A stretch of DNA of 41,144 nt from Promethearchaeia archaeon (lineage in GTDB: Archaea > Asgardarchaeota > Lokiarchaeia > Sigyniarchaeales > SOKP01), in contig JAHQWS010000137.1 in the NCBI GenBank assembly GCA_029856295.1, positions 1 through 41,144 on the forward strand, given 5' to 3'. The notes under the pieces were generated by a model. The model saw only the letters and a program-made list of their open reading frames with translations, was not told the DNA's origin and ran no database searches. Position 1 is the stretch's first letter. Each line of letters starts with the position of its first letter. A program made the translations under genes and the position numbers. Below are positions 275-41,089 of this stretch, one piece after another.

Positions 275-967
275 TTAGGAAATAGCGTTATATAAGTTGT
301 CTCCAACAATAGCACCTATTAATACAAAAATAAAGCATAGAATTGTCCCCAGTAATAAATTTATTATCAATTGCTTAGATGTTTCCGTATTATCTTCTTG
401 CGCAGGAGCAAAACAAGCCATCATCGCACCATAAATTCCCATAGCTCCACCACCTAATATTATGATAAAAGCAATATTACCTGAAAAAATAATTTCAATT
501 AAGAATCCCTGGATTGCTCCTAATACAAAAAATTCTCCAGGATTTAATTTTCTTTTAATATGTAATAAATAGATTCCTAAACCAATCCCTAAGAAAACGG
601 GAACCGCAAGTAATAGGTCATGTTCTAAACTTTTCGCTTTTCCTCCTAATCCGCCTCCATTATAATATATGACGGTTTCTTCTATGATAGCAAGAATTAG
701 GATTGCCGGAATATAAATATATTTGAAATTTTCATTGAGAAATGAAGATTTGTGAAATTTTTTAAATAGTAATATTGTGAATAAGAGCCAGAAAACGAGA
801 ATTACTCCCGCGAGAATCGTTTGGGTATGAATTTCTAAGATTCCAGAAAGAAAGAACAGAAACGTGGTTAATAGATAGAGTATTATAATAATTATTATTA
901 ATTTCCGTAAAAATCCCGAATCATTCTCATCATAAAACAATAAATTTTCAAATTTATTTTCAGACAT
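275..967 (-). CDS. Polytopic membrane protein, unknown function
   Basis: 230-aa ORF with about 6-7 long hydrophobic segments and Gly-rich loops (NGGGLGGKAKS, ILGGGAMGIYGA). No recognisable catalytic motif. Confidence 0.6.
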   Translation of the reverse strand: MSENKFENLLFYDENDSGFLRKLIIIIIILYLLTTFLFFLSGILEIHTQTILAGVILVFWLLFTILLFKKFHKSSFLNENFKYIYIPAILILAIIEETVIYYNGGGLGGKAKSLEHDLLLAVPVFLGIGLGIYLLHIKRKLNPGEFFVLGAIQGFLIEIIFSGNIAFIIILGGGAMGIYGAMMACFAPAQEDNTETSKQLIINLLLGTILCFIFVLIGAIVGDNLYNAIS

Positions 968-1252: not shown

Positions 1253-1891
1253 ATGAATACTAAAAATTGGAACCACAAAGCATTTCTTTTTGAAATCTTA
1301 GGATGTAGTGTATATGTTATTCTTATAGTTTTAGCAATGGTGTTCTATCCAGGAGGTACTCCTACTAATCCAAATACTCAGGGTTATTCGTTTTGGGAGA
1401 ATTGGTTAAGTGATTTGGGTCTAATTCAATCATATTCGGGGGAAAATAACATAGTTTCAATGATATTATTTACAAGTGCATTAACTTTTTGGGGCTTATC
1501 TTTAATTCCATTCTTTTTGGCGCTACGATCATTATTTACTGAAAGTCAATTGGAGAAAGTATTTAGCACTATTGGATCTGTATTAGGGGTAATTGCCGGA
1601 ATTGGTTTGGTCGGTATAGCATATACACCTGCTGATATTCTTGGTCTTCTACATATTACATTTGTTTACATTGCATATTTATCCTTATTTGTCTTAGGAA
1701 TACTCTATTCGATAACGTTATTTAAAAGCAAGAGACTCCCAAAGCAATATGCGATTATTTTCTTAATTTGGACTATAATATTTTTCCTTACATTGTCGAT
1801 GGGGATAGTTGGTCAAAAAATTGGGAGATTTTCAACCATAATTAGCTTCGCATATGTCGGATATGGTGCGTGGAAATTAGAAAAAACATAA
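1253..1891 (+). CDS. Membrane protein, DUF998-like (recollection-based call)
   Basis: 212-aa ORF with about 6 TM helices. The N-terminal YPGG...GYSFWENWLSDLG resembles the YPG..S...ISDLG signature I recall for DUF998. A purine-rich stretch (aaagaggaaaaaaatagg) precedes the ATG. Confidence 0.55.
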   Translation: MNTKNWNHKAFLFEILGCSVYVILIVLAMVFYPGGTPTNPNTQGYSFWENWLSDLGLIQSYSGENNIVSMILFTSALTFWGLSLIPFFLALRSLFTESQLEKVFSTIGSVLGVIAGIGLVGIAYTPADILGLLHITFVYIAYLSLFVLGILYSITLFKSKRLPKQYAIIFLIWTIIFFLTLSMGIVGQKIGRFSTIISFAYVGYGAWKLEKT

Positions 1892-1921: not shown

Positions 1922-3145
1922 TCATTCTAATTGTCGCTTTGTCAATGTATAAAGCAATCCAAGTATTAAGACAAGAAGTATCGATATAATGAGGATCACT
2001 TGATAAACAGCATTAATTCCCCCAGTATTAAAAAACGGTTCATAAAATGCGGGAACAAGTGCAATTCCGATAAAGTATCCTGCTGTTAAAAGCCCAGCAA
2101 GAGCCCCGCGCCTTTCAGGAGAGAGGATTTGACTGTAATACATAATAGAAGGAAAAAGAATTCCACCAGCAACACCAGCTAATAATAAACAAATACCCAC
2201 ATAAAAAATAATCTCAGAACGGGTGATATCTCCTAAAATTATTAGAAAAGCCGTTGTTAATAATAGTGAGATTAATCCAATTGATAATGTAAACCCTATG
2301 CCCATTCGTTTAATTATATTACCGTTCACGAGTCCTGAAATTGCTCCAGCAATTCCGACTAAACTAAGCAGAATTCCTATAATAGATTCGCTCACAGCTC
2401 CAGTAAAAGCTCTTGAAGTCCAAATAATAATTGCTAAATACGTAAAAGATATTAAAAAAGCCGAAAAAATCATGAGAATTACCGAAGGACGTCGTATTTC
2501 TTGGTCTATATGGGAGAATAGAACACTGAGTCCTAAATTTTCATTTTTTTTTTGAGTGGTTCTTTTTATTGTAAACAATATGATTATACATGCGATAGTA
2601 ATTAAAATAAAAATAATGTATATATAACGCCAGCCAAAATGGACTATCTGTCCCGCAAATAAGGGACCTAAACCAAGACCGATAGCAGCAACGGCTCCCA
2701 AATATCCCATTTTTTTAGGGATTTTCGGTCCTGGGGGAGTTATATCTGTCATTAACGCAATTAAAACAGGATTCACAAAGCCAAATCCAATCCCAGCTAA
2801 AATATTCCCGACAATAAACATCAATAAGGTAAAAGAAATTGCAGCAATGAACCAACCAAATCCAAATATAATAAGACCAAATATCATAACCGGAAATCGA
2901 CCTCTCACATCAGAAATAGCACCAGAAAATAGTTGAATAATTGCAAATGGAACCATAAATGCCGGTATTGCTATTAACAACGCATTTGGGCTCACATTGA
3001 AATCGTTGGAAAGCACTCCAAATAAGACTAAAATAACATTTCCCGTAACGGGCCCGAAGCCAAAAAGAAGGTAGATGATAATTTCAATTAATTTTGACTT
3101 TTTTTGAGGTTCATTTGCCCCCGTTCTACTTAACTCTTGATTCAT
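1922..3145 (-). CDS. MFS transporter
   Basis: About 12 TM segments and an MFS motif-A-like GAISDVRGRFPVMIFG after TM2. I place the start at the ATG at 3145 (MNQELSRTG..) because AGAGGTGA lies 5 nt upstream. The ORF track extends to 3184. Confidence 0.85.
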   Translation of the reverse strand: MNQELSRTGANEPQKKSKLIEIIIYLLFGFGPVTGNVILVLFGVLSNDFNVSPNALLIAIPAFMVPFAIIQLFSGAISDVRGRFPVMIFGLIIFGFGWFIAAISFTLLMFIVGNILAGIGFGFVNPVLIALMTDITPPGPKIPKKMGYLGAVAAIGLGLGPLFAGQIVHFGWRYIYIIFILITIACIIILFTIKRTTQKKNENLGLSVLFSHIDQEIRRPSVILMIFSAFLISFTYLAIIIWTSRAFTGAVSESIIGILLSLVGIAGAISGLVNGNIIKRMGIGFTLSIGLISLLLTTAFLIILGDITRSEIIFYVGICLLLAGVAGGILFPSIMYYSQILSPERRGALAGLLTAGYFIGIALVPAFYEPFFNTGGINAVYQVILIISILLVLILGLLYTLTKRQLE

Positions 3146-7346: not shown

Positions 7347-7364
7347 TTATATATAAAGAAAAAA
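7347..7364 (-). promoter_or_regulatory. T-run + TATA-like promoter box for the NYN-domain gene
   Basis: The minus strand reads TTTTTTCTTTATATATAA, ~45-60 nt upstream of the ATG at 7303. This motif recurs upstream of many genes in the window. Confidence 0.5.
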
Positions 7365-7501
7365 TTACTATTCTTGGACACATTACTTCATTGAACGTAT
7401 ACATGATAGACGAACATGACCCAATAATAAGAAAACTCAATTTTTTCTTTAAATAATTTAGATGATATTAGTATTCTAATAGCTTTCCCTTGCGATGAGC
7501 G

Positions 7502-8512: not shown

Positions 8513-11224
8513 TTATTTATGGACGGGGATGCCACCTGATTTTCTCTTCGATTTACTGGAGGTGATAATTACGATTGACGGAACTGTAATTAAGGTGATC
8601 ATTATCGGAAGGGCCGTTTGATTAGAGGGCTCGATAATTTGTCTTTCTTCTGAATTATCCTGAGATGTGCTTTCTTTTCCTAAACTATCACTATTCCCGT
8701 ATACGCTGGATGTGGTTTGGATGGTTATAGGGAGCCGAACTTTCTCTATACCGCTATCTTTTACTAGGATATCTCCGTATACTATTGGATAGTTTTCTTC
8801 TTTATTCTCTAGATAAACAACTCCTTGATAATAGCCTTTTGTGCCATCCCAGTAAAAATCAGTAAAAGTGCCTGCTTGATCGTCGCTATTAAATTGCACT
8901 GTTATAGCAGATCCGAAATAATCAAGAACAATATTGTTAATTGATACATTCATGATAATTTCCGACCCTAATTCAACTGAGGGCGGGTAGATCGCAGTAA
9001 TTTTCATATCGTCATTTTTGGCCATGTCACAAATCCATAAAAACACCTCGTCACTTAGAACTTCTCTGTCCGACGTTAGATAAAACTCATTAGATTCATC
9101 TAGATAGATCTCCCTTACTAATTGATTGGTACGCAGGTTATCAAACACAATATTCAGGTCTAAAAGCTCCGAGATTTTATAACTATAATAGATATTTTTG
9201 ATATTTGAATAGTTAATATTTTGAACAACAAAGGTTTTTATTTTACCTTTTTCGGAGTCTAAACTCCCTGAGGCTATTAGATTCATAAGATAGGCCATAT
9301 AATAGGTATTTCTCAATCTGGTATCAATCTCATCACTATACCAAGGATCGTAATATAAGGTAGCTCCATCTCCCTGTTGACCTCGGATAAGATATGCGAC
9401 TAAGGCGCCTACATTAACACCGACATCAGAAATATCCCCTAATTCGAGCCAGTCAGCAAGAATTTTCAGCGACCTAATTGCAAAGTATGCATATTCTAAA
9501 TAAATATAATTATTTTGCTGCTCATCATCCAAATGACTCTTTAACACTGTGTTTGGCAAGAACCCGCCGTAATTCGAGTATGCATCATTTAAAAACTGAG
9601 AGTCTAAAATATATTGCACTAAATCATTTAAGTCACATTCGTTTTCGAAATTATCCAAGCCTTTTATGGTTCTTAAGATGTCCAACGCATAGAACGTGGT
9701 TTTAAGCGTATATGGTAACCCGATCTCATTGTATTTTTCGTCATACAGTCCACAGTAAAATTCAATTGGTCGAGAGCGAAAATCCATATTTTTTAACGAG
9801 TTATAGGTTAGGGATTGTTGGAACATGTGTAAAGATCCCCCAAAAAAATGATCGCCATAAGAATAATGATAATTTGAGAGGATGAGGTTATAGAGGGTCT
9901 CTTTAAAGTCCTTATCATCGTAGTCATCTATCCAATAAATAGATAACGCGCTTTTCATAATTGCGTGCATAAGCCTTAATGAGGTATCATCCTTAGAAAG
10001 AAGAGAAAATCCGTTGTCATATTGTTGAAAATACTTTTTTAAAGACGTTGCGATTTGATTCTTATCATCAGAAGATAATTGAGAGATCTCCCCGGTCTCA
10101 TCTAAGCCTCTAATGACCTGAAAAGTATCTATGAGCTCATGGTATGGATAGGTTGTAGAAGATTCCCAAATACCCCACGAATTGCGATGGTTTAGAATTA
10201 AATTGATTACTCCGATACGATCTATGCTTGAGTATCCCGTTAAATCAGACAACTGAAGTCCAAGAGCAGTGCCCACAATATCACTGTAATTTTTTGGGCT
10301 CAATTTAAAACTTATTTCAAAATATGGCACGCTGCTGTCATAATGTTTCTCTAAAAATTGATGGAACCCTGAATATGATATAATGTAATTAAGCATGTCT
10401 AAGCTTTTTAAACAGTAATATGAGCTCAGAAGAGTCACATCCAAATTATCCACACTTCCAAAATTGGCGACCTCATCATTGTAAAACCCGCCGTAGAATA
10501 TACTAGTTGTTGTGGTATTTTGTAAATCTGATATAAAATTTTCAATATCTGACCATTCTTCGTTATGTTCGCTTTTATCATCTTGAAGGGCATCTAATGT
10601 AAGAATTGCATAAAATGTGTTGTCCATTGTGGAAATTTTAAATTTTGGATGTAAGCTAGGTAAGTATGGCTGTCCGATAAATCCGCTAGTGTCTGTGTTG
10701 TAGCAGTCCCAGATGAATGTACCCGCTTTTTGTTTATCGATAGCAGTCAAGTTGCCTAGGATACTAAGTGATAACAAGGCATAACAATTCACCTCTAAGA
10801 CAGTCGTTAAAGAATAATATTTATAAGAAAAATCAGTCCCTAAATATCTTTTCGCGCCGCGATCCATAAACATTCCAGAGTTCTCATCATAATGAGCCAT
10901 GATATAGTTAAACGCTTCTGTCTGGTTAATTAAATCCAACATACCGATCGCTTTGAGAATATATAAGGCATAATAGGTTGCTTGAAGCGAGCTTTCATAG
11001 GTCTGAGAAAAGTAGTTTCGAGAGTTAAATTCATCGTATCTTTCATCAAATATATCATTGATGTATTCATATGTTTCTCCTGCGGCTATATATGGTTCAT
11101 TTAACATATGATAAGCGGATTCATGCAAAGGATTATTATTACGAGCCTCATATAATGGAACCATCATACTAACTAAGATACTAAATACTACTGCTGCAAA
11201 AATACACGTTTTTAGTAGTTTCAT
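8513..11224 (-). CDS. Cell-surface protein: signal peptide, ~10-11 prenyltransferase/terpene-cyclase-like alpha-alpha toroid repeats, beta-rich domain, Ser/Thr/Glu stalk, C-terminal TM anchor
   Basis: N-terminal MKLLKTCIFAAVVFSILVSMMVPLYEA. Recurrent helix motif (ATYYALYILKAIGML, NCYALLSLSILGNL, NTFYAILTLDAL, SYYCLKSLDML, TFQVIRGLDETG, TTFYALDILRTIKGL, YAYFAIRSLKIL, NTYYMAYLMNLI). C-terminal PIMITLITVPSIVIITSS followed by KSKRKSG. Confidence 0.7.
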   Translation of the reverse strand: MKLLKTCIFAAVVFSILVSMMVPLYEARNNNPLHESAYHMLNEPYIAAGETYEYINDIFDERYDEFNSRNYFSQTYESSLQATYYALYILKAIGMLDLINQTEAFNYIMAHYDENSGMFMDRGAKRYLGTDFSYKYYSLTTVLEVNCYALLSLSILGNLTAIDKQKAGTFIWDCYNTDTSGFIGQPYLPSLHPKFKISTMDNTFYAILTLDALQDDKSEHNEEWSDIENFISDLQNTTTTSIFYGGFYNDEVANFGSVDNLDVTLLSSYYCLKSLDMLNYIISYSGFHQFLEKHYDSSVPYFEISFKLSPKNYSDIVGTALGLQLSDLTGYSSIDRIGVINLILNHRNSWGIWESSTTYPYHELIDTFQVIRGLDETGEISQLSSDDKNQIATSLKKYFQQYDNGFSLLSKDDTSLRLMHAIMKSALSIYWIDDYDDKDFKETLYNLILSNYHYSYGDHFFGGSLHMFQQSLTYNSLKNMDFRSRPIEFYCGLYDEKYNEIGLPYTLKTTFYALDILRTIKGLDNFENECDLNDLVQYILDSQFLNDAYSNYGGFLPNTVLKSHLDDEQQNNYIYLEYAYFAIRSLKILADWLELGDISDVGVNVGALVAYLIRGQQGDGATLYYDPWYSDEIDTRLRNTYYMAYLMNLIASGSLDSEKGKIKTFVVQNINYSNIKNIYYSYKISELLDLNIVFDNLRTNQLVREIYLDESNEFYLTSDREVLSDEVFLWICDMAKNDDMKITAIYPPSVELGSEIIMNVSINNIVLDYFGSAITVQFNSDDQAGTFTDFYWDGTKGYYQGVVYLENKEENYPIVYGDILVKDSGIEKVRLPITIQTTSSVYGNSDSLGKESTSQDNSEERQIIEPSNQTALPIMITLITVPSIVIITSSKSKRKSGGIPVHK

Positions 11225-11273: not shown

Positions 11274-11291
11274 TTTATATAAAGAAAAAAA
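11274..11291 (-). promoter_or_regulatory. T-run + TATA-like promoter box for the 903-aa surface protein gene
   Basis: The minus strand reads TTTTTTTCTTTATATAAA, ~50-65 nt upstream of the ATG at 11224. Confidence 0.5.
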
Positions 11292-12595: not shown

Positions 12596-15500
12596 TTATT
12601 TTTTTTTATTTTTAACACCGCATCCAGGACAATATAGAGAATTTGGCTCTATTATCGTTCCACATAACTCACAAGTCCTTACTATATTGATCTCCACGTG
12701 TTCTTTTACTTTATGATAAAAATCTGAAAAAATATTATACGTATTAACAACTTTCGCTTCTAAATCTCTGTCGTGTTCATGAAAATTATTACAATAAGTT
12801 AGATAATTATGTAACTTTTCTTGTGAAAATGGAAGTTTCTGGTTTATAGAAAGATAATTACAAAACGCTTCCAAATCTTTTTTGGTGATGGGAGTAATGA
12901 CCTCATCTATGCGATATAACTTTTGATATACATTCATGAGAAACGTTTTTATGTAGAATTTTTCAATGTTTAGTGCCGATTTTAGATCTTTAGTAGTAAT
13001 ATGCTTATAAATTTGAAATAATTCATAATATAGGTCATCTAATTCTTTGGCCAAAACTTTGTTAAGATTTTCGTCTTCAAGAACACTCTCAGGTGCAATA
13101 TTCATAGTTTCGTTCTCAATATGGATGTCTCGATCAAAGTTTTGTTCTACGACCTCAACTGAAATATCCGTCATTTGTGCTTTTTTTGTCTGAAAGTAAT
13201 CATCTACGGCTTTTTGATAGTGCTCTCCAACTTGATAAGAAGTTCGCATGGTCTCTTGACCTCCCGCATTTTTCGGATGGGACTCTACTAAATATCTCTG
13301 CGTGATAAGGATAGTAAACAGATCATTTTTCAATTTCTTCAGTTCTCTCTTATCGTGCGTGGTCATTTTGGCTTTTTCATGAATCACTTTCTTCAGCTCA
13401 TCCTTAATCTGTCTCTCAGAGATCGGAAGCTTATGCACCATCTTTAGACCATTTAATAAGTTAATAATCTCAGGAATAAATTGCGAGTACTTTCCGAAAT
13501 CTTTTTCGAAAATGGTCTTTCTGGTGTGCTCTAAAATGCGCTTTTCAGTTAAATTGAGGTCATACCCCTGCTCTTTCATGAACTCGGCAATTTCATCCAT
13601 ATTCATGGGTGACACCTGCTCTATGTCATCTACCTCAAATTCTACAGGAAATGTTTGGTTCTCGTCATCTCGTTTTACTAATATTTCAGTAGGCTTCATA
13701 CTCTTGAGGTATTCAATTTGGTAGGTATCATTTCGTGACTTGCTATAATATCCGGTTCCATGAAGCTCTTGAAGGCCCATTATATTTTTCAGCACTTTTA
13801 TATCCCGATAATCGGTGGCTTGGAAGGTGATAAAGTTTTTAAACAATTTTAAGAAATGGTGGTGCAAGTAATGCACTTGATTGGCCAGTACCACCGTTCC
13901 AAACCCTTCTCGTCGCAGGGGCTCGAAAAATTTGTCGATGATCCCAAAATCCAGTTGTTTATCTAACGATTTCTCATCAAACACCAGATCTAAGTGAGGT
14001 AAGAAGAGTACTTTTTCACAAAACGCATCAAAATTTGAAATATAATGAATGATTTTCGATAAAATGACGAACATTAAAAAGTTTTTTTTCTTCAGATCAT
14101 TGGACATGGACAGATCAACAATGACGGTTTTATCATCTGAGAGAAACGTTTGAAACGTTACCGCTTGCTCTTGCCCCGTTTGGGTGCTATGTAGAAACGT
14201 TATATCATCTTCCGTGAAATCTTCAAACATAGAAATCAATTCCTCGACATGAGGATTTTTCTTCCAGGATACTTGATTCTTGAGCTCTAACGCAAGTGAT
14301 GCCAGGTCTAAGTCTTTATGTTCTTGTATAAATTTACGCAACCTGTCAACGGAATAGCGGTCTTTTTTAAATGTGAGGGCATACGAATCATACATATAGT
14401 CCAAATAGGCAGTATTTTTCTTTTCATATAGAATATCTGAATTAAGCGGGTCGATACTAAAGGCCTTGCCCATTTTAAAATGAACGATATCGTACTGGTG
14501 TTGAGTGTCCTCAAAATATTTGATTAGCCTTGACCACTCTCCGCTATAATCAAAGATAATAGAAGGGACCCCTTGCTTGACCAACTGGATTACCATCCTC
14601 ATTGCCAATAGATCTCTCTCACGGGCAGTTCCGTTGACAATTAACACATTATCCAATTGATCTCTGGTAAGTCCGGCAGGGGCTTCTTTTTGCCAAAACT
14701 CGGTATTGATGGTATGGCCAAATGCAATAAAGTTTTCTAAACTTAAAGGAGTATTAAATTCGGCGGCCAGTCTAGTATCAATTCCTTTTTTAAACACATC
14801 CTCGATTCTGATAAGATGCATTAACACTTTACCTTGAAATAAGAGGTAATGTAAATGAGTGCCCGAAAGAGTGTATAACTTGGTCTTTAAAATCTCAGAG
14901 AGGCACCCCGAAACAAGTTTCTGTGAGCTAAGCGGAGTCACATAAAACTCGTCCAGCCGGGCAGTAAACCTATCTTCCAAAAACGCGATGTAATTTTGTG
15001 AGCGATTTGCTAATTCAATGAAATCGTGTTCTGTAATTGAATTCACGTCTTCAAACGATTTGTAGGCATAGGTAGATGCAGTCAGGATAACTTGCCATAC
15101 ACCTGAACGAGTTTTTAGCCAACCCTCTCCTTCTATATCGCTGGTAACGTATTCTTTGAGCTTACTCTGAGTGTTAGGATTTAATTTGTTATATGCTATT
15201 CTATCAAAGCGATAGAAACTTAAAGGGCTGGCCATTACGGTGTAGATAAAAGGAATTTTCCTTTCAATTAGTTCCAAGTAATATTTACCGGGGTAAAAAT
15301 CGATAATCTTAGCTGCGTTCTCATTATATTGAAATCTTACTGCCGCATGGTTGATATTAAACATTTTTTCGCAAACAAGTAGCGTATTATTTATGAGAAA
15401 AAAGAGCGCATCCGAAATTCCTCTGTATCGAAATGCTTGAATTCCTTGAAAGGGCTTTACAATGTTGAACTCTTTACTCTTCAGCAGATTATAAGCGGTC

Positions 15501-16534
15501 AAATAATAGAGCGGCGCTCTCCACCACACCCAGAGCATCACAACTAGTAAGCAAAGGTCTATAAGCACTATAATCCAAAAGGAAATGTTAAATAACAACA
15601 AAAATAATGAGGTACAATAGAGAACAAATAAACAGAAACCCGTTTTCATGGCATAGGAGCTTATACTGATGTTCGGTTTTATGACCTCCATCTGTTTTGG
15701 AACGGTATAGGGGATGTCTCGTATGACAAACGACCTGAGAGCATGGATTAATTGATTTCCAGATAATAACTGAACCTTATAATGATGAAAATCACCTACA
15801 AAATCGGCGCGCATGGAATCTACAAACCGTCCAAATACATCTTGGAGCGTCGTTAATTTTCGAGCGGTAAGTATTCCCGATGCATCATAATAGGTCGCAA
15901 AATAGATGGCCGTCTGAAAGGATCGCATCGGTTCTTCATGTTCTTGGGATAAATTCTCTTCAAACCTTCTTGATGCCGTGCTAGAAATAATGGGCTGTTG
16001 ATGGATCTGGAAGGTGTAGGGCATGGCATGTTTATTGAGCACTTTAATATATTGATTTAAGGTCGCTTTCGTAGTTTCTGGGAGACCCTCGACTTTAAAG
16101 ATACTGAGAGCCACTGTTTTTAACTGCTCTTTATTGGTAATATATAATACATTTGCCGCATCATCAGTAAAAAAAAAGGTAAAATCACTGAACATATTCA
16201 CTTTACGATACTTGCTAAATGGCGTGGAAAAACCCCCTCTCAAACCAAATATCGTGTCAGAAAAGGTAACCATAAAAAGGATCACAGTGAACACTCCCAC
16301 AAGCACTCCCAACATAGGATTAGAACTGATAAGATAGAGAGCAATCATAAAAAATATGGCAACAGCGAGTACTGAAAGCCCTTTTATATTTGCATAGAGC
16401 ACATTAATATCGGTAAATGAAGGGTTATCGTCCCATATGTCTAAATATTTACTTTTACTCGGCTTTTGTTCAGTCGCTTCTTTCTTCTTGTTGGCAAACG
16501 GGTGATCCGAATAGACTTTTTTACTTCTACTCAT
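12596..16534 (-). CDS. Giant membrane-anchored HerA/VirB4/FtsK-like (DUF87-type) protein with degenerate Walker A/B, helical tail and C-terminal zinc ribbon
   Basis: TM hairpins at about aa 52-95 and 297-345, each followed by a ~200-aa soluble module. Residues 625-920 align by eye to the HerA/DUF87 core: LIVNGTARERDLL..VPSIIFDYSGEWS (versus ..G.TGSGKS....vlIfD.hGEY), VIVDLS, VLFLPHLD (versus llvlEEAH), REGFGTVVLANQVH (versus GRKyGvgl.l.sQrPs), FQATDYRD. No G....GK[ST] occurs anywhere in the 1312 aa. The C-terminus is CELCG..x11..CPGCG. Confidence 0.75.
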   Translation of the reverse strand: MSRSKKVYSDHPFANKKKEATEQKPSKSKYLDIWDDNPSFTDINVLYANIKGLSVLAVAIFFMIALYLISSNPMLGVLVGVFTVILFMVTFSDTIFGLRGGFSTPFSKYRKVNMFSDFTFFFTDDAANVLYITNKEQLKTVALSIFKVEGLPETTKATLNQYIKVLNKHAMPYTFQIHQQPIISSTASRRFEENLSQEHEEPMRSFQTAIYFATYYDASGILTARKLTTLQDVFGRFVDSMRADFVGDFHHYKVQLLSGNQLIHALRSFVIRDIPYTVPKQMEVIKPNISISSYAMKTGFCLFVLYCTSLFLLLFNISFWIIVLIDLCLLVVMLWVWWRAPLYYLTAYNLLKSKEFNIVKPFQGIQAFRYRGISDALFFLINNTLLVCEKMFNINHAAVRFQYNENAAKIIDFYPGKYYLELIERKIPFIYTVMASPLSFYRFDRIAYNKLNPNTQSKLKEYVTSDIEGEGWLKTRSGVWQVILTASTYAYKSFEDVNSITEHDFIELANRSQNYIAFLEDRFTARLDEFYVTPLSSQKLVSGCLSEILKTKLYTLSGTHLHYLLFQGKVLMHLIRIEDVFKKGIDTRLAAEFNTPLSLENFIAFGHTINTEFWQKEAPAGLTRDQLDNVLIVNGTARERDLLAMRMVIQLVKQGVPSIIFDYSGEWSRLIKYFEDTQHQYDIVHFKMGKAFSIDPLNSDILYEKKNTAYLDYMYDSYALTFKKDRYSVDRLRKFIQEHKDLDLASLALELKNQVSWKKNPHVEELISMFEDFTEDDITFLHSTQTGQEQAVTFQTFLSDDKTVIVDLSMSNDLKKKNFLMFVILSKIIHYISNFDAFCEKVLFLPHLDLVFDEKSLDKQLDFGIIDKFFEPLRREGFGTVVLANQVHYLHHHFLKLFKNFITFQATDYRDIKVLKNIMGLQELHGTGYYSKSRNDTYQIEYLKSMKPTEILVKRDDENQTFPVEFEVDDIEQVSPMNMDEIAEFMKEQGYDLNLTEKRILEHTRKTIFEKDFGKYSQFIPEIINLLNGLKMVHKLPISERQIKDELKKVIHEKAKMTTHDKRELKKLKNDLFTILITQRYLVESHPKNAGGQETMRTSYQVGEHYQKAVDDYFQTKKAQMTDISVEVVEQNFDRDIHIENETMNIAPESVLEDENLNKVLAKELDDLYYELFQIYKHITTKDLKSALNIEKFYIKTFLMNVYQKLYRIDEVITPITKKDLEAFCNYLSINQKLPFSQEKLHNYLTYCNNFHEHDRDLEAKVVNTYNIFSDFYHKVKEHVEINIVRTCELCGTIIEPNSLYCPGCGVKNKKK

Positions 16535-18156: not shown

Positions 18157-19944
18157 TCAATCCTCCAAGAACGCGCTATATTTTGAGATCATTTGCCCTT
18201 TCAGTGATTCTTCTTTCGATTCCCTAGAACCTTTAGCTTCTATATCCATTTCCTCTCTTTCATACTGAGAAGCTATGGTGATATTTCTTTCTTTTCTCAA
18301 TGGAATATCTTCTTGGTCCTCGAGAGCTTTTTCACTTTCAATTTCAATGACGCAGGAGAATTCACAAGATTTCCCAAACCATTCATAAAGGGCTTGGTCA
18401 AGTTCATGGGCGCTCATGGTGTCTTTTATGCTATATACATCAACCTCATCTATCTGAACGGGTTTAAGAAAGTAGGGTGTCTGATAGTCTGCTTTGATAG
18501 TTTTTTGGGATTTTATAAAAGTATTATAGATAAACCACATAACAAACCCATAAATAACTAGTGCGGCAACTCCTAGATTGGTAAACGTCGCTAAAAGAAA
18601 GATATTTTGTAGGAGCGTAATAAATAAAAATATAATACCAAACAATAAGAAAGGAATCGAGTATTTTTGAAAATCGTTTTTCATCTTGGCAAGTGATTTG
18701 TCATATTGTATAACCGCATTTTCTTGTGAAAAGAATTCCCTGAGAGAGACCTTTTTTTCCAAGAATTTTACCAAGGCCTTTATCGCTTCACATTCAACCA
18801 CGTGTAGATTTATCTTGCGCTGATATGAAAACATAGCAGTTTTTTCAAGAAACGCGGGCTCACTTATACTCACTAAAACTGGATGTATGACTGGTTTATA
18901 TTCCTTTTGATTAGCAGCAATAAATAAGGGTGTTCCGTCTTTGGTTTTTATAATAGATAAAGTCTTTTTTGCCAGTTTTTTGCGTAATAATTGAAATAAA
19001 GTTCCTCCCATGGTTATATTTTGAAATACCTCTTTTTGAGCAGATACTAAACTCTCTTTAGATATCTCGACTGGGATGTTGGTAGGCTTGTAGATAATAT
19101 GCTCGTCAGAGATCAGCAAAATCCCTCTTAGGTGGCTTATTTTCACTGGAAAAAAGACAAATATCCCTACAGAGTTATTTACATCCAGTATTTTATAAAC
19201 CAATACATCAATATCTTTCGAAATACCTCTGAGCAGGTTTGATTGCTTGTCAAGAATGGAATATCCTAACTTCTCAAAGCGAAGTATTATCGTTTTTTTC
19301 ACTTGGATAAGCTCTTCTTTGCTCAACATCTCCCCGTTAAGTTTATTATAGCCCTCATTTTCATAGGGAATAAAAACTTCTTGAAGGTGTTCTTTTTCTG
19401 GTTTTTGAGGTGTAAGCTCGTTTTCAATAAAGGGCTCTATTTCCTCAATAGCTGTATCTGGTTGATTGATTGACGGGAAGCTTTGTATACTATCGTGGTC
19501 ACTCGGGTTTGTGAAAAGTATTCGTTCCTTATTTTTAACGGAAACGAGTTGTTCTATCTCCGCGAATTCTTGGAATTGGGCTTCTGTCTCATCTTGAAAA
19601 GGTTCTTCTAATGGTTCCTCTTCTTCTAATATCGAATAGCTGTTTAATGTCACATTATCGTCTTTAGCATCTGATTGTTTCTCAAAAACGGGCGCGAGTT
19701 GCTTTTCATAGGTTGGCTCATTTATTACAGCATCATGAGTACCGTCCCCATTATGTTTTGTAAACTCCTGTGCGTTTTCGATAATTTTTTTTGAGGTTGC
19801 AGCTCCAAACCCTTTTACTTCTGCCAATTGTTCAGGAGAAAGGGCTGCCAATTGATCAACACTAGTAATCCCGGCACTAATTAATTTATTTTTGGTAGAC
19901 TCTCCAATCCCATCTATATTGGTAAGCTCATATTCTAATTCCAT
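18157..19944 (-). CDS. Operon protein 1: N-terminal tandem helix-hairpin-helix (HhH2) DNA-binding domain, acidic linker, possible restriction-endonuclease-like fold, 2 TM helices, C-terminal domain
   Basis: LTNIDGIGESTKNKLISAGITSVDQLAALSPEQLAEVKGFGAATSKKIIENAQEF contains two GhG hairpins as in the RadA N-terminal domain or ComEA. Residues 208-270 (ILRFEKLGYSILDK..KDIDVLVYK..GIFVFFPVKIS) resemble Mrr/Hjc-type cores. The TM pair lies at about aa 429-476. Confidence 0.75.
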   Translation of the reverse strand: MELEYELTNIDGIGESTKNKLISAGITSVDQLAALSPEQLAEVKGFGAATSKKIIENAQEFTKHNGDGTHDAVINEPTYEKQLAPVFEKQSDAKDDNVTLNSYSILEEEEPLEEPFQDETEAQFQEFAEIEQLVSVKNKERILFTNPSDHDSIQSFPSINQPDTAIEEIEPFIENELTPQKPEKEHLQEVFIPYENEGYNKLNGEMLSKEELIQVKKTIILRFEKLGYSILDKQSNLLRGISKDIDVLVYKILDVNNSVGIFVFFPVKISHLRGILLISDEHIIYKPTNIPVEISKESLVSAQKEVFQNITMGGTLFQLLRKKLAKKTLSIIKTKDGTPLFIAANQKEYKPVIHPVLVSISEPAFLEKTAMFSYQRKINLHVVECEAIKALVKFLEKKVSLREFFSQENAVIQYDKSLAKMKNDFQKYSIPFLLFGIIFLFITLLQNIFLLATFTNLGVAALVIYGFVMWFIYNTFIKSQKTIKADYQTPYFLKPVQIDEVDVYSIKDTMSAHELDQALYEWFGKSCEFSCVIEIESEKALEDQEDIPLRKERNITIASQYEREEMDIEAKGSRESKEESLKGQMISKYSAFLED

Positions 19945-20007: not shown

Positions 20008-20024
20008 CTTATATAAAGAAAAAA
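20008..20024 (-). promoter_or_regulatory. T-run + TATA-like promoter box for the four-gene membrane operon
   Basis: The minus strand reads TTTTTTCTTTATATAAG, ~65-80 nt upstream of the ATG at 19944. No comparable box occurs inside the operon. Confidence 0.5.
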
Positions 20025-20175
20025 TGGAACGATATGATATGCTCTTAGGATATTTTAGAAATTTCCCGGTAATAAGTTGTTTATATAATCTGTTTTTTTT
20101 CTCTCTCTACAGTTTGATGCAATTTTTTTCTTTCTTTAAATCAGAGTCCGTTCACTGAATTTTGCACCCACTCCA

Positions 20176-20195
20176 TTTTTTTTATTTAAATATAC
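20176..20195 (+). promoter_or_regulatory. T-run + TATA-like promoter box for the HExxH membrane protein gene
   Basis: TTTTTTTTATTTAAATATAC, ~20-35 nt upstream of the candidate starts. A second similar box (TTTTTTTCTTTCTTTAAATC) lies at about 20123-20142. Confidence 0.45.
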
Positions 20196-23849: not shown

Positions 23850-24471
23850 CTTGATCTTCCTCAAAGATAATTAGTGAATGATTCAATTCGATATCGGTCA
23901 GCTTTTTATGGGTTTTCCTATACGAGAGGATCGTCTCTCCTAGTAATAAACCCATCTCGGAGGGATAAGTAAGATTATTACCATTTTCCGTAAATAGATA
24001 GGGGTAGGTAGTCTTTAATGTTTTCATGTTTTTGAGCAATTCATTATTAATAAACTTTAAATTAAAACCCTTTCCTCTATTTACGTACTTAAAAGTGTAC
24101 GTGATATCACTGAATAGCTTCGCACTGGATTGAGTCATCTGGATCTGTTTCGGAATTAAAGGGGTTGTATCATCTTTATCGGCGATAAGATAGATGGCAC
24201 CATTGACTATTTTCCTTTTTAGGCGGTGATATTTAAAGTTATTTTTAAAGAGTTTCTGAAACTTTAAAACTAACGTAAGAATTTTATTGGCATCTTGAGT
24301 AGAGAGCTTAAGATACTCCGCCAGCTTCTCATAATTTAATTTTTTATGATAATTACCTTCAAATGCTTCTAGTGCTTTTAGTACGTTATTTAGTGCAGAA
24401 AGTGTCTCTCTTCTATCCAATCGTTTAGCTTTTCTATTAACGCTCTCGTGTACATTAGCATCCGATACCAT
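23836..24471 (-). CDS. Hypothetical protein (211 aa), co-transcribed with and overlapping the hef start
   Basis: Its stop overlaps the hef start by 14 nt (29 nt with the TTG start). A TATA-like box at 24491-24507 lies just upstream of its ATG. No motif recognised. Confidence 0.6.
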   Translation of the reverse strand: MVSDANVHESVNRKAKRLDRRETLSALNNVLKALEAFEGNYHKKLNYEKLAEYLKLSTQDANKILTLVLKFQKLFKNNFKYHRLKRKIVNGAIYLIADKDDTTPLIPKQIQMTQSSAKLFSDITYTFKYVNRGKGFNLKFINNELLKNMKTLKTTYPYLFTENGNNLTYPSEMGLLLGETILSYRKTHKKLTDIELNHSLIIFEEDQDVRT

Positions 24472-24490
24472 ATGATTGGGTTCAAATAGA

Positions 24491-24507
24491 ATTATATAAA
24501 GGAAAAA
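24491..24507 (-). promoter_or_regulatory. T-run + TATA-like promoter box for the 211-aa gene / hef operon
   Basis: The minus strand reads TTTTTCCTTTATATAAT, ~20-35 nt upstream of the ATG at 24471 (short or absent leader). It lies ~35 nt downstream of the proposed intron 3' end. Confidence 0.5.
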
Positions 24508-24542
24508 TCTTTTTTTTACAACTCATATCTTTTCCAAACCTA

Positions 24543-24618
24543 GTTAAATAAGGAGAGGATGTTACCATCCTCTTCCTCTTTTAGGAACCCCGCGTGCCAG
24601 TTTCCCTGCACGGGGCTC
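24543..24618 (-). ncRNA. Group II intron catalytic core, domains V and VI
   Basis: The 34-nt DV has a 9-bp lower helix including the AGC triad, an AC bulge on the 3' strand, a 5-position upper helix (4 pairs and one A-G mismatch) and a GAAA tetraloop. DVI is GAGGAUG-GUAA-CAUCCUC extended by further pairs with a bulged A. Confidence 0.85.
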
Positions 24619-25373
24619 GCGCCTTAAGAACCCGTTCACGTCGCCGTGTTCCTTTGGTTCATATTTCTCATAATCCCCCCGAAACCATCCAAGTCACCTC
24701 GGACGTTTCTATAGGAAATGATCACATTGGCGTAGTTCCACGCCAAGACTTACCATATCTTATCACGGGTTACTCGAAAGATCCTTTCTTGAATCCGTCT
24801 TACGTGTCGCTTGGGTGTACCCCATTGGATACTATCCCAGTCCACTACACGCCCGTTGTTCTGTTCAATGAGTTCACTCATCGTTTAACTTCTCCTCCGG
24901 TTAAGACTTTTCAATGCTTCTCTTTCGTTAAGACCTGTTTCGGAAGTCAGCATTCTTTCAAATTGGGTATCTCTGTAGTTCATACACTACTACAGCCCTA
25001 TCCACTTTATTATAAAATGGCGTTCGCTTTTTCCTACATCCTCTGCCCGCTGAACCTTCCCCCATCCTCACGTCTGGGATACCACTACCCTCGTGGGACT
25101 CATCGGGTTTACCAAGTTCCTTATGCTCAACTTTCAACAGAGCCCTTAGGGAGATGCTCTCCCCCGGTTGCACGACGGATGACAAAGGAATGAAAAAAAA
25201 CCATTCCTACCCGGCAACTTACCTTTTGGTCTCGGCGTATCAGCTATATTTCGCCGATTTTTAATAACGGGGTTTATCACACCTTCACTTTCGTTTCCCA
25301 TAGGCTCCTTGGCTAGCCCACAGTCCACCTTATAGCTAGGCGCTGACGGTACATTGTCCTTGCAGCTTCACAC
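24543..25373 (-). mobile_element. ORF-less group II intron (self-splicing ribozyme-type retroelement without an intron-encoded protein)
   Basis: The minus-strand RNA starts GUGUGAAGC at 25373. Domain V (24618-24585) is GAGCCCCGUGCAGGGAAACUGGCACGCGGGGUUC. Domain VI is a hairpin with a bulged A at 24549, the 7th nt from the proposed ..UUUAAC 3' end at 24543. AAAGUC at 24910-24905 (EBS1 candidate) is complementary to the 6 nt immediately upstream of GUGUG (GACUUU, 25379-25374). The region is visibly GC-richer than its flanks, has many GNRA-capped hairpins, and has no ORF with reverse-transcriptase motifs. Boundaries are approximate. Confidence 0.8.
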
Positions 25374-25500
25374 AAAGTCGTTACCAACAATGCATGTGCA
25401 AGTAGCCATTATCGGTCATCTCGATACCAGTTTTTAAAAATCACCTTATTACATTTTCTATTTCAAGTCCTGTATTCGAACATAAGATTTTCTTGTCACA

Positions 25501-25519
25501 CTTTTTTCTTTAAATATTC
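25501..25519 (+). promoter_or_regulatory. T-run + TATA-like promoter box upstream of the small-TM / RadB-like gene pair
   Basis: CTTTTTTCTTTAAATATTC, ~100 nt upstream of the ATG at 25616. A weaker TATA-like stretch (TTTTATATTAA) lies at ~25591. Confidence 0.4.
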
Positions 25520-25615: not shown

Positions 25616-25918
25616 ATGTTTTACCAGCAAAATCCGGTATTTGCGGTAATTATCGTAGGTTTGATTTTAGGGATTTACCTATTTTTTAAAGCACGAAAGT
25701 CCAGAGGGACCTCCGCTCCTGGCTCGTTTCTTAGTGGCTCCCGAAGCTCCCAGACTAACAATATGGATGATTTTCTGAAGGTTCTATTGCTTCAACAGTT
25801 TACCAATTCAGGATCACCCTCTTTCGTCCAGAATTCAACGACTCCCAAAAAAATAAGTAAGCGCCAGGAACAGATCGAAAAAACGCAAAAAGAAGTACTT
25901 GAACTATTAGAGAGTTAA
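25616..25918 (+). CDS. Small single-pass membrane protein (100 aa)
   Basis: N-terminal TM helix FAVIIVGLILGIYLFF followed by KARKSRG and a Ser-rich tail. Its TAA stop shares one base with the ATG of the next gene (TAATG). Confidence 0.55.
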   Translation: MFYQQNPVFAVIIVGLILGIYLFFKARKSRGTSAPGSFLSGSRSSQTNNMDDFLKVLLLQQFTNSGSPSFVQNSTTPKKISKRQEQIEKTQKEVLELLES

Positions 25919-26634: not shown

Positions 26635-27049
26635 AAATATAAACAAACCAAACATACTTGTTCCAGTTCAGGAAGCTAAAAAAGTTAAATTGGAAAAAAT
26701 ATCGGAAAGTTAAAGGTTGGGTAAAAAGGATGATAAAGAAATTCCCGTGAAATTAGAAGATTTAGAATTTTTAATAGAATTTTTTGATTATCAGCAACTC
26801 ATTACTAAAGGTCATGAGTTTAATCTAAATAAAGTAGATTCAAAACAACAAGGATTAAATAATCCATTTACCTACTATTAAGTGAAATATGCCACAAGAC
26901 AACTGGAAGACTGAATTTTTATTTTTGGATTTATTGAGGATTTGAATTTTTTATCTTATTTTCTAAACCTTTTAAGATTTAACACTAACTAAATTACGCT
27001 GAAGAATTATATTAAGAAACATTTTAGTAAATATATTAAAATAGTTTGA

Positions 27050-28168
27050 TTAAGAACCATGTGAATATAATTCGAGCTTCATTGCATTAACTATGTCTGA
27101 TTCACTTATGAACCCGACAATTCTTTGTGTTTCATTGTCTTTCACGACGGCAACATGAGGTCGATGATCCATTTGATTGAATTTTCTCATAGCATCTTTT
27201 CCTGTTTCTTCTTCATATATTAAAGGGAATTCGGAAAGACTCTTCATGAAATAGCCAATTATGAATTCAGATCTTTGTTCAATCGGCACTCTTTTTATAT
27301 CATCTAAATGAACTATTCCTACAATATCATTTCCTCTTACAACTGGGAAATATGTCTGCGTAAAGACTATAAAATAATTCCTTATTGCATCATTAAGCAG
27401 CGTATCAAAAGGTATAGCAAATTCTGGCCAACCAGCTACATCTCTAACATTTATTTTTGACAATGTAACTTCATTTTTCGCTTGAACATACGACTTTCTT
27501 GCTGATTTATCTAAAAATGAACCCATAAATATTAGCCAAAATCCTCCAAATTGGCCAAATAGTATTTGTATAAAACCAAGAGCCATCATAGAATATCCAA
27601 CAATGCGTCCTAATTTACTCGCGGTCTTTGTTGCTGATAAAAGATTATTCCTTCTATTCCAAAGATAAGCTCTTAAAACTCTGCCACCATCCATAGGAAA
27701 TGCGGGAATAAGATTAAAAATACCTAATCCAATATTTGAAATTCCTGAATATAATAGTGTAACAAACAACCAAGGAGGTAAAATTAATGGATTAAAAAGC
27801 ATTACTGCTAGAAATATGGCTCCCAATATTAAAGAACTTAAAGGACCAACAATAGATATGATCATTTCGCTTTTTGGTGTTCTTGGTTCTTCTTCAATTT
27901 TAGAAACTCCCCCAAATAAATATAGTTCAATCTCAGAAACTTTAAGTCCATATTGCTGAGCTACTAATGAATGCGCTAATTCATGGATTAGAATCGAAAA
28001 TAAGATTATAACGCCATTTATAATACCTACTAATAAAATCTCGACTAATGAAGCCTCAGGTACTAAATCCAAGAAGAGAGTTACAGCATAAAAGCCTACC
28101 AAACCAACTATTATTAATGTTGAGAAATGTAATTTAATTTTAATACCTCTAACAGTTCCTATTTTCAT
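27050..28168 (-). CDS. Site-2 protease family (M50) zinc metalloprotease with a C-terminal CBS pair
   Basis: HELAHSLVA in a TM helix, a second motif NLIPAFPMDGGRVL, about 6 TM helices, then two CBS-like modules (..FPVVRGNDIVGIVHLDDI.. and ..HVAVVKDNETQRIVGFISESDIV..). Confidence 0.9.
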   Translation of the reverse strand: MKIGTVRGIKIKLHFSTLIIVGLVGFYAVTLFLDLVPEASLVEILLVGIINGVIILFSILIHELAHSLVAQQYGLKVSEIELYLFGGVSKIEEEPRTPKSEMIISIVGPLSSLILGAIFLAVMLFNPLILPPWLFVTLLYSGISNIGLGIFNLIPAFPMDGGRVLRAYLWNRRNNLLSATKTASKLGRIVGYSMMALGFIQILFGQFGGFWLIFMGSFLDKSARKSYVQAKNEVTLSKINVRDVAGWPEFAIPFDTLLNDAIRNYFIVFTQTYFPVVRGNDIVGIVHLDDIKRVPIEQRSEFIIGYFMKSLSEFPLIYEEETGKDAMRKFNQMDHRPHVAVVKDNETQRIVGFISESDIVNAMKLELYSHGS

Positions 28169-28583
28169 TATTTTATCATATCTTGTTTTTATTTGAATTT
28201 ATGTAAATTTGAATTTTTGTAAAATTATTAATCGCCAAAATCAATTTTCTTCTTCGATTTTTTTTCTTTTTTTTCTTTGCATTGGGAATTACTTTTCTTG
28301 GAGATTTGGAATGAGATTTTGGTTTATTTTTCATTATTAAGGATTTTATGCTAATTCGAAAATAAAATAAAAATAGTCTTAAATGAAGAGGATTTTAGAA
28401 AAGAACAAAAATCTACAGTATTGAAATATGAAAAAAAGACTACTTTTCTTAGAGTTATATAAATCTTTATCTAACTTTTACAGGAAATGAAGCAGAATAA
28501 GTAAGATTTTATTAGAGAGTCTAAGTTATTCTGGAAAACAAAATAATTCTGCTTACGAAATCTATTGAGTAATTAAAATTTTC

Positions 28584-28600
28584 ATTTTTTCTTTTAATAC
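28584..28600 (+). promoter_or_regulatory. T-run + TATA-like promoter box for fen
   Basis: ATTTTTTCTTTTAATAC, ~25-40 nt upstream of the ATG at 28623. Confidence 0.45.
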
Positions 28601-28622
28601 TCCCAAGTGCATTATATAAAAT

Positions 28623-33647: not shown

Positions 33648-33664
33648 ATTTTTTATTTAAATAC
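33648..33664 (+). promoter_or_regulatory. T-run + TATA-like promoter box for radA
   Basis: ATTTTTTATTTAAATAC, ~55-70 nt upstream of the ATG at 33720. Confidence 0.5.
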
Positions 33665-37827: not shown

Positions 37828-38050
37828 AGATGTTGTTAAAAGTTGGTTGATGAATCTTGGAGATCCTACATTTCACCGTATAAGTTAGGAAATGAAGAAG
37901 CTCATTGGTAAATAACGATTAAATAAATGACAGAATTTGCAATATCATTTTTCTTTTTAATTAATTATAATTAATTTTCGTTCTCATCTACAATATGACT
38001 TCTTTTTCTTTATTTTTATTTAAAGAATAAATTCGGTGGCTATCAGAGAC

Positions 38051-38068
38051 ATTTTTCTTTAAATATGC
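38051..38068 (+). promoter_or_regulatory. T-run + TATA-like promoter box for the 127-aa zinc-finger ORF
   Basis: ATTTTTCTTTAAATATGC, ~20-40 nt upstream of the ATG at 38089. Confidence 0.45.
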
Positions 38069-41070: not shown

Positions 41071-41089
41071 ATTATATAAAGAAAAAAAA
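41071..41089 (-). promoter_or_regulatory. T-run + TATA-like promoter box for the zinc-ribbon / surface-protein gene pair
   Basis: The minus strand reads TTTTTTTTCTTTATATAAT, ~35-50 nt upstream of the ATG at 41038. Confidence 0.5.

Follow-up and report, generated by a model that had tools for sequence, protein, structure and literature searches.

Locus and host

The DNA analysed here, in the following called the window, is a stretch of 41,144 nt (contig JAHQWS010000137.1 of assembly GCA_029856295.1) from an archaeon of the Promethearchaeia, which are placed within the Asgard kingdom Promethearchaeati. Its minus strand carries, from position 25501 down to 24543, a group II intron of 959 nt that is devoid of an intact open reading frame (ORF) and derives by deletion from a parent encoding a reverse transcriptase (RT). 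Identity, boundaries and origin of this ORF-less intron, taken jointly, leave hardly any doubt. The element sits in a spacer of 185 nt between two divergent genes, enlarging it to 1144 nt. An ORF of 211 amino acids (aa) lies on the same strand as the intron, with its ATG 71 nt beyond it, and an ORF of 100 aa (25616..25918) on the opposite strand, with its ATG 114 nt from it. No ORF spanning the joined exons was found, neither in the window nor in any relative.

The window also encodes archaeal Hef, RadA, RadB-like, Hel308 and FEN-1 proteins and an Arf-family GTPase. Among the best 120 relatives of RadA, which show 74-82% identity, all named matches are Asgard metagenome-assembled genomes (MAGs), mostly of the Promethearchaeota and including Promethearchaeota, Lokiarchaeota, Hodarchaeota and Thorarchaeota. 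An earlier inspection of the DNA letters alone (the sequence-only reading) had described a maturase-less group II intron in an archaeal intergenic region, possibly of an Asgard-type host. The core of this description holds, as does the host.

Boundaries of the intron

At gathering thresholds exactly two Rfam matches were obtained in the window, both on the minus strand, which answers the covariance check proposed with the sequence-only reading. Intron_gpII (RF00029, domains V/VI) matched at 24620..24543 with 47.0 bits (gathering score 40, E 2.7e-06), and group-II-D1D4-7 (RF02012) at 25427..25294 with 57.1 bits (gathering score 34, E 2.6e-09). Weak E-value matches to RAGATH-27, SNORA62, CRISPR-DR60 and isrK stayed far under their gathering scores and were dismissed as chance. 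Within the intron, the RF02012 match corresponds to positions ~75-208, inside domain I.

Three lines of evidence place the intron at 25501..24543, namely the limits of homology among relatives, the covariation of its exon-binding sites (EBS1, EBS2 and EBS3, see below) with the exons, and an empty site. In an alignment with two Asgard loci, L027 (Promethearchaeia ABR02, 80.6% identity over 767 nt) and L110 (Ca. Harpocratesius repetitus), conservation sets in with GTGYGACAAG, corresponding to window position 25501. A metagenome scan yielded 24 close relatives (81-87% identity), whose homology with the window extends from 15-16 nt before 25501 to 24543 (+0-3). In a related genome, GCA_019058445.1 (L151), the syntenic locus has no intron and an uninterrupted target, GGAATATATAAAGAAAAAA^TAGATTTT, the window counterpart being GAATATTTAAAGAAAAAA-intron-TAGGTTTGG. 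The gene order in L151 is that of the window, with the 100-aa ORF and an AAA ATPase gene on one side and a 206/211-aa ORF and the Hef helicase gene on the other. Its spacer measures 182 nt, compared to 1144-959 = 185 nt in the window after removal of the intron. The termini, GUGUG at 25501 and ..AAC at 24543, fit the 5' GUGYG and 3' AY of group II introns, and from these boundaries the ligated exon junction is predicted to read ...AAAGAAAAAA/UAGGUUUGG.

The sequence-only reading had instead assumed an intron of 831 nt, starting with a GUGUG at 25373 and using AAAGUC (24910-24905) as EBS1 for the GACUUU in front of it. Both the pentamer and the 6-mer complement exist, and the GC-rich block sets in near 25430. 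However, conservation, the basal helices I(i) and I(ii) of domain I and the Rfam model all extend upstream of 25373, the RF02012 match by 54 nt, and excision of 25373..24543 fails to restore the empty-site sequence of L151. The pentamer falls within a conserved domain-I hairpin (25402-25359), of which it forms the 3' strand (helices 3-4, 92-99.6% paired), and the true 5' end lies 128 nt further upstream. At least 120 bacterial and archaeal loci carrying this internal motif have a GTGYG ~92-132 nt upstream of it. The proposed EBS1 is located in domain IV, not in domain I, 24 nt before the start codon of an RT remnant; its match to GACUUU is therefore a chance 6-mer, and the covarying EBS1 is found at 25200-25193. 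An intron of 831 nt thus has a vanishingly small probability. It was also considered whether the ~55 nt upstream of 25373 might be 5' exon sequence, structured and conserved as in IIC/attC-like targeting or in a twintron, an idea that was dropped since conservation in the relatives starts at 25501.

The stretch had also been described as richer in GC than its surroundings, and indeed the GC content is 0.42-0.50 across ~24400-25450 and 0.31-0.35 in the flanks. The first 75 nt of the intron contain only 29% GC, which is why the true 5' end was overlooked. As an observation on the model itself, group-II-D1D4-7 has its onset ~75-130 nt within the intron, inside domain I, and includes the conserved internal GUGYG in its hairpin; boundaries called from it are therefore ~100-130 nt short at the 5' end.

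Ribozyme structure and class

Minimum free energy folding of versions of 831, 885 and 959 nt was uninformative for an RNA so long, and comparative folding was used instead (RNAalifold, 42 sequences, first 590 nt). Domains I-III comprise 96 consensus pairs, 79 of them with compensatory changes. Paired cells amounted to 95.2%, compared to 69.1% in shuffles (none of 500 reached the observed value) and 36-45% with the partners slid by 1-3 columns. The window retains 92 of the 96 pairs, the full-length relatives 90-95. Eleven substitutions in the first 600 nt are private to the window, three of them in helices, where pairing is preserved in all three cases.

The basal helix of domain IV (GUCUUAA 24934-24928, UUAAGGC 24627-24621) covaries class-wide. 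Domain V was found exactly as quoted in the sequence-only reading, and likewise domain VI with its bulged A, the branch point, which is conserved in 16 relatives (Table 1). In domain I, a helix with the strands GAGCC-UAUGG-G (25307-25297) and C-CCUAAG-GGCUC (25151-25140) has the shape of a tetraloop receptor of the 11-nt type; judged by its sequence, it is probably the zeta receptor that contacts the GAAA loop in domain V. The folding proposed as a further check thus yielded domains I-III, the base of domain IV and domains V/VI supported by covariation.

Judged from its sequence, the intron RNA is of structural type IIB. Domain I has an EBS3 column opposite the first base of the 3' exon, as expected for IIB, and an EBS2 is present. 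Class IIC was ruled out, with EBS2 present and covarying and domain V having its full 34 nt; the hairpin of the Rfam match, considered as an IIC-type upstream hairpin, belongs to domain I and not to the exon.

On the plus strand, an ORF of 199 aa overlaps the intron, and every relative has antisense stretches of 75-149 aa free of stops. The GC-rich block could accordingly be read as a protein gene with incidental RNA-family matches. Against this, the ORF has no Pfam match and crosses both domain V and the deletion junction described below, so that it is never one unit in full-length relatives. Conservation tracks RNA pairing, with its 79 compensatory pairs, and the antisense strand is poor in stops because the sense strand of the intron is purine-rich. 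We therefore regard the ORF as spurious and a protein gene as extremely improbable, even if a gene caller may annotate it. Stop-poor antisense frames over introns are a likely source of false gene calls.

Exon-binding sites

The exon-binding sites were searched by a column-by-column scan of a 78-sequence alignment of domain I against the 5' exon of each intron. The best exon-complementary block is the U8 loop of a hairpin (EBS1), in whose columns 79% of the cells are paired. In the window its U-run forms seven base pairs with the intron-binding site IBS1 (exon positions -7 to -1). This pairing covaries, as in L027 (UCUUUCU/AGAAAGA), L110 (AACAGUU/AACUGUU) and many bacterial relatives. EBS2 forms five base pairs with IBS2 (exon positions -13 to -9), and in the close family an EBS2 of UUAUA accompanies an exon of UAUAA. 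Both EBS1 and EBS2 of the window copy match their own exon perfectly. At EBS3, 73% of 41 introns have a base able to form a Watson-Crick pair with the first base of the 3' exon. An AAAUAU loop at ~25250 and the CUUUG that follows the EBS1 hairpin were early candidates for EBS2 and were abandoned, since the covarying block is 25264-25260.

Origin from an RT-encoding parent

As stated in the sequence-only reading, the intron contains no minus-strand ORF longer than 75 aa. The further statement that none shows RT motifs has to be corrected. An ORF of 43 aa is the N-terminus of an RT/maturase (RVT_N, E 3.5e-4) and shows 72-79% identity (tblastn) to the first 43 residues of the 499-aa proteins encoded by relatives. 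It comprises codons 1-41, free of stops and frameshifts up to a junction, followed by I-W-stop. In another frame the last 11 codons and the stop codon survive, matching residues 488-499 of these proteins with 75-92% identity. Compared by blast to the 2307-nt relative L128, the window copy lacks positions 752-2090 as a single frameshifting deletion of ~1339 nt, which removed codons ~42-487. Because these gene remnants are present, the element must have arisen from an RT-encoding parent by one internal deletion. The parent belongs to a ~2.3-kb intron family of sediment Lokiarchaeia-type Asgard archaea. The deletion left the ribozyme complete, with domains I-III, the base and the start-codon region of domain IV, and domains V and VI.

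About ten full-length relatives (2301-2307 nt) encode the 499-aa RT/maturase, with RVT_N, RVT_1 and GIIM domains and a TIGR04416 match of 365 bits. No match to an HNH endonuclease domain was found in these proteins. From its sequence, the intron-encoded protein (IEP) of the family is of the endonuclease-less type (D/E/F-type, RT plus X/maturase) and is placed as group D, E or F/g, no finer. The RmInt1 IEP has ~419 aa, compared to 499 aa in this family. The text of PMC3552965 offers no usable sequence signature for naming the IEP class. Within the 41-kb window, to which the searches for RT and domain V were directed, no RT-like sequence beyond the remnants (tblastn with the 499-aa proteins) and no second domain V (covariance model) were detected.

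The start codon of the remnant lies in a 5-bp hairpin (AUGAG-UGAA-CUCAU, 24868-24881), which is kept in L127 although the codons differ, and an SD-like (Shine-Dalgarno-like) GGAGGAG is found 12 nt upstream of the start. This hairpin resembles the IEP-binding stem of domain IVa, with its start codon, in other group II introns.

ORF-less copies among relatives

ORF-less forms are frequent in this family. About six of 15 complete close-family copies (~40%; loci L127-L150) lack the ORF, and their deletion junctions represent at least 4-5 independent events. The breakpoints differ among them (Table 1), so that loss of the ORF has been recurrent, and the junction of the window copy, GATAAG/ATATGG in the DNA, was found at no other locus among the relatives compared. 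L142 and L144 have near-identical breakpoints and different flanks, a hint of movement of an ORF-less form after the deletion. All ORF-less derivatives retain domains I-III, the start-codon region and the base of domain IV, and domains V and VI; by this pattern of retention, survival would seem to depend on a working ribozyme.

In the wider D1D4-7-type class, 12 of the 38 complete elements in GTDB genomes are ORF-less forms of 770-960 nt, among the matches listed; examples are Methanolobus L060, Caldilinea L077 and Ralstonia L036. This share contrasts with the description "rare in bacteria" from ORF-based surveys. A plasmid search gave two short bacterial matches only, a Klebsiella fragment and a Nitrosococcus ORF-less intron.

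Further observations concern the copies themselves. Independent ORF-less copies have their 5' breakpoints clustered in the first ~40 codons, which could be due to a deletion hot spot or to a need to preserve the part of domain IV that binds the IEP. The last 45 nt of L127-L150 (24543-24584 in the window) show two types of 3' end and domain VI, ..UUAUUUAAC and ..UUAUUCGAC/GGC, spread regardless of similarity in the 5' part, which suggests recombination between intron copies. A Desulfatiglandales MAG (L038:1531-5981) carries two full-length introns of 2226 and 2225 nt head to tail, the 3' exon of the first being the GTGCGAC of the second. On a Promethearchaeum sp. contig (L116) there are three group II signatures within 2.5 kb, a domain-I start at 615-780 (+) and domains V/VI at 1711-1789 (-) and 2480-2558 (-), 769 nt apart, which might reflect nesting or fragmentation of introns. 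A tandem arrangement of ORF-less copies in L116 was considered and is unsupported, as the two copies of domains V/VI have no recognisable 5' ends.

Insertion target

The window copy is inserted at the cognate target of the family, TTTAAAGAAAAAA^T. The family target TWTAAAGAAAAAA is the reverse complement of the apparent core-promoter consensus of the host. Allowing up to one mismatch, the 13-mer TTTAAAGAAAAAA occurs 12 times in the window, compared to 1.6 expected occurrences (0 of 100 shuffles reached this), and all sites are intergenic. Its reverse complement TTTTTTCTTTAWA lies sense-oriented 17-101 nt upstream of 12 of the 31 gene starts, five times perfectly, but antisense-oriented upstream of only one of them; genes without it are mostly operon-internal. 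In L151 six of six matches are sense-oriented, 16-100 nt upstream of gene starts. These positions indicate that TTTTTTCTTTAWA is probably the core promoter of the host, consisting of a T-run and a TATA box.

As the target is the reverse complement of the apparent promoter consensus, copies would come to lie just behind promoters and antisense to the gene. Of 17 non-redundant family loci, 12 have a divergent ORF whose start lies 36-142 nt upstream of the 5' splice site, compared to a baseline of 20.5% for random intergenic positions of the window (binomial p ~1e-5, with loci partly dependent and ORF definitions differing between the two counts). The intron family thus appears to insert directly behind promoters, antisense to the promoter's gene and leaving the promoter on that gene. 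We tentatively extend this to a broader proposal, to which we give slightly less than even credence: EBS1 and EBS2 would be complementary to the antisense strand of the consensus core promoter (TTTTTTCTTTAWA, with two EBS2 alleles matching its TTTAAA/TTTATA variants), copies would land behind promoters harmlessly to both genes and promoters, and the recurrent ribozyme-only copies (~40%), with their ribozymes kept intact, would be served or mobilised by a few RT/maturase siblings. No mention of promoter-antisense targeting by group II introns was found in the open-access literature.

Table 1. Positions of the intron, its parts and associated features in the window, and breakpoints of ORF-less relatives
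Feature	Position	Strand	Basis
Whole ORF-less group II intron, 959 nt, 5' GUGUG to ..AAC 3'	24543..25501	-	homology limits of relatives; L151 empty site
Domain I	25113..25501	-	RNAalifold on 42 sequences, pair counts
Domain I basal helices	I(i) 25495-25492/25116-25113; I(ii) 25487-25476/25130-25119	-	RNAalifold, pair counts
Internal GUGUG, 3' strand of conserved domain-I hairpin (25402-25359, GUAA loop)	25369..25373	-	RF02012 alignment
Helix with 11-nt-type tetraloop receptor	25140..25307	-	helices 5-6 covary
EBS2, UUAAA	25260..25264	-	column scan
EBS1 hairpin; U8 loop 25200-25193 is EBS1	25187..25207	-	best exon-complementary block
EBS3, G, facing IBS3 (U at 24542)	25159	-	column complementarity
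Domain II	25046..25107	-	helices 11-14
Domain III	24940..25036	-	helices 15-18
Domain IV, shortened by deletion	24621..24934	-	basal helix
RT/maturase remnant, codons 1-41, then I-W-stop (43-aa ORF)	24750..24881	-	Pfam RVT_N, E 3.5e-4
Deletion junction, GAUAAG/AUAUGG	24759/24758	-	blast against L128
Last 11 RT/maturase codons and stop, YGKSWRGTTPM-stop, other frame	24722..24757	-	tblastn
Domain V, 34 nt; AGC triad, AC bulge, GAAA loop	24585..24618	-	RF00029; purpose-built covariance model R1, 86.9 bits
Domain VI, bulged branch-point A at 24549, 7 nt from ..AAC end	24543..24584	-	Rfam, covariance model, relatives
IBS1, GAAAAAA, exon -7..-1	25502..25508	-	7-bp pairing with EBS1 U-run
IBS2, UUUAA, exon -13..-9	25510..25514	-	5-bp pairing with EBS2
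Promoter-like motif TTTTTTCTTTAAA, reverse complement of IBS2+IBS1	25502..25514	+	101 nt upstream of ORF 25616..25918
Antisense ORF over intron, 199 aa, considered spurious	24594..25193	+	
Motif sites 1-6	7352-7364, 7441-7453, 11278-11290, 20012-20024, 20128-20140, 20178-20190		
Motif sites 7-12	25502-25514, 28585-28597, 33649-33661, 38019-38031, 38051-38063, 41075-41087		
L131 ORF-less breakpoints	749/2150 (L128 coordinates)		
L141 ORF-less breakpoints	664/2131 (L128 coordinates)		
L145 ORF-less breakpoints	664/2176 (L128 coordinates)		
L142 ORF-less breakpoints	737/2224 (L128 coordinates)		
L144 ORF-less breakpoints	738/2225 (L128 coordinates)		

Elsewhere in the window (26635-28622), the AAA-ATPase and FEN-1 genes flank an M50 peptidase-CBS gene (27050..28168, minus strand); in the otherwise collinear L151 only 48 nt separate the two flanking genes. 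An ORF of 1312 aa (12596-16534) has no Pfam or NCBIfam match, one of 903 aa (8513-11224) shows a prenyltransferase-like toroid stretch only, and a 595-aa protein (18157-19944) only an N-terminal helix-hairpin-helix region of the RadA type.

Activity in trans, relic or domesticated RNA

The explanation we favour, with moderate confidence, is that of a non-autonomous 959-nt IIB intron, a deletion derivative whose splicing and mobility are served in trans. At the level of sequence, the element passes all IIB tests and reads as a structurally intact, non-autonomous IIB intron. If transcribed, its RNA would fold into the ribozyme, EBS1, EBS2 and EBS3 would pair with the exon ends, and the bulged A of domain VI would attack the 5' splice site, releasing the intron as a lariat. 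The 499-aa protein, supplied in trans from a full-length sibling at another place in the genome, would be required for splicing to be efficient and for any further mobility by reverse splicing into DNA; otherwise the intron would be an inert passenger. Whether the window copy is still competent for splicing or mobility in trans we consider evenly balanced.

The main rival shares the origin by deletion and holds that the intron is a dead relic, untranscribed in sense, neither splicing nor moving, and decaying in a harmless spot. This is a realistic explanation, which we nevertheless judge clearly less probable than the favoured one. Several findings speak for it and weigh against an intron served in trans. 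The element lies between two divergent genes, each with a promoter-like motif near its start, and is antisense to the motif at which it is inserted, the nearest one, and upstream of the promoter-like motif of the 211-aa gene; no sense-oriented promoter motif was seen upstream of the intron. Compared with 16 relatives, the distal helix of domain V has one A.G mismatch, owing to a private U to G change, and the EBS3-IBS3 contact of the window is a G.U wobble only. The window contains no RT gene, and the genome sequence covered for the full-length sibling required in trans is the 41-kb contig alone. Moreover, so few private substitutions are unable to separate a recent deletion from ongoing selection. 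A relic, on the other hand, fits poorly with the 92 of 96 consensus pairs retained, the pairing preserved at every private substitution in a helix, the perfect match of EBS1 and EBS2 to the exon and the RT remnant free of stops and frameshifts before the junction. Also, the six independent ORF-less derivatives of the family all keep domains I-III, the base of domain IV, and domains V and VI.

Alternatively, the RNA might have been domesticated and kept for the benefit of the host, perhaps as a structured element insulating or regulating the divergent promoters on either side. It is located exactly between two promoter-like motifs and has extended the spacer from ~185 to 1144 nt. But the orthologous locus of L151 is without the intron, family copies occur at many unrelated loci, and no feature of the window copy departs from an ordinary mobile intron. 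Domestication is therefore very unlikely, and the intron served in trans remains the preferred explanation.

Comparison with known introns and significance

Both ORF-less and RT-encoding group II introns have been on record from archaea since 2003; among bacterial introns, ORF-less ones are described as rare and as usually accompanied by related IEPs that possibly act in trans (PMC4424553). According to PMC4424553 and PMC12584367, related RT-encoding copies are present beside bacterial ORF-less introns in nearly all cases, and support of ORF-less introns in trans has been shown experimentally. The Methanosarcina introns (Dai & Zimmerly 2003, as summarised in PMC4424553) resemble the window copy in being archaeal, ORF-less beside RT-encoding relatives of bacterial type, and outside host coding sequence, with IEPs presumed to act in trans. 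In contrast, they home into other group II introns and are nested, whereas the family described here uses an AT-rich intergenic motif and the window copy is unnested; furthermore, their host is a methanogen and not an Asgard archaeon. The ribozyme-only introns in Trichodesmium dnaN are likewise spliced in trans by the RT of a related intron, but interrupt an essential gene and must splice (PMC12584367), a constraint that the intergenic window copy does not have.

Classes C, D, E and F are without an endonuclease domain, D, E and F have IIB RNAs, and CL, D and E are the classes occurring in archaea (PMC4424553). The endonuclease-less bacterial classes D, E and F/g1-g4, e.g. RmInt1 (PMC4424553; PMC3552965), share with the window family the IIB-like RNA with EBS1, EBS2 and EBS3 and an IEP with RT, X and a C-terminal extension but no HNH domain. 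IIC introns insert after terminators (PMC12584367; PMC4424553) and are an analogy only, as a lineage specialised for a recurrent and harmless intergenic signal. They recognise a DNA hairpin and a very short IBS and have no EBS2, while the window family with its IIB RNA would use EBS1 and EBS2 pairings of 5-7 nt to promoter-like sequence. A member of the same D1D4-7-type class is the ~0.8-kb intron of the Nitrosococcus halophilus plasmid pNHAL01 (NC_013958.1, ~53.2-54.1 kb; L002:3053-3788), which also keeps an N-terminal RT remnant (42 aa), with domain V directly after it. It differs in its bacterial plasmid host, in having ~60-70% identity in conserved parts and in its independent deletion. 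In RefSeq this remnant is annotated as a separate "reverse transcriptase N-terminal domain-containing protein".

Several IEP types are known from Asgard genomes (PMC9887622), and a 2024 preprint surveyed Asgard introns with maturase proteins as the start (10.1101/2024.12.10.627823). The introns of both studies share with the family described here the host group and an IEP with RT and maturase domains, and were detected with the same Rfam models. As these surveys started from maturase proteins, ORF-less copies would go uncounted, and neither full text, as far as searched, mentions such copies or target sites. As an object, the window intron is ordinary: group II introns were already on record from Asgard archaea, and it is one more of them, without an ORF. 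It illustrates that ORF-based surveys of archaeal introns miss ORF-less copies, which by RNA-motif search make up about one third of the complete elements of the class.

The sequence-only reading had pointed out that group II introns in an Asgard-type host bear on the origin of spliceosomal introns. The host is indeed an Asgard archaeon, but the bearing is weaker than implied. What does touch on the path proposed from mobile introns to introns serviced in trans is the large proportion of ORF-less copies. The target analysis provides a candidate promoter motif for these Lokiarchaeia, and a promoter-complement target, if confirmed, would be an insertion niche new to group II introns, following a logic like that of IIC introns and terminators. 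If true, this family would represent a natural system of many introns and few trans-acting maturases in the closest archaeal relatives of eukaryotes.

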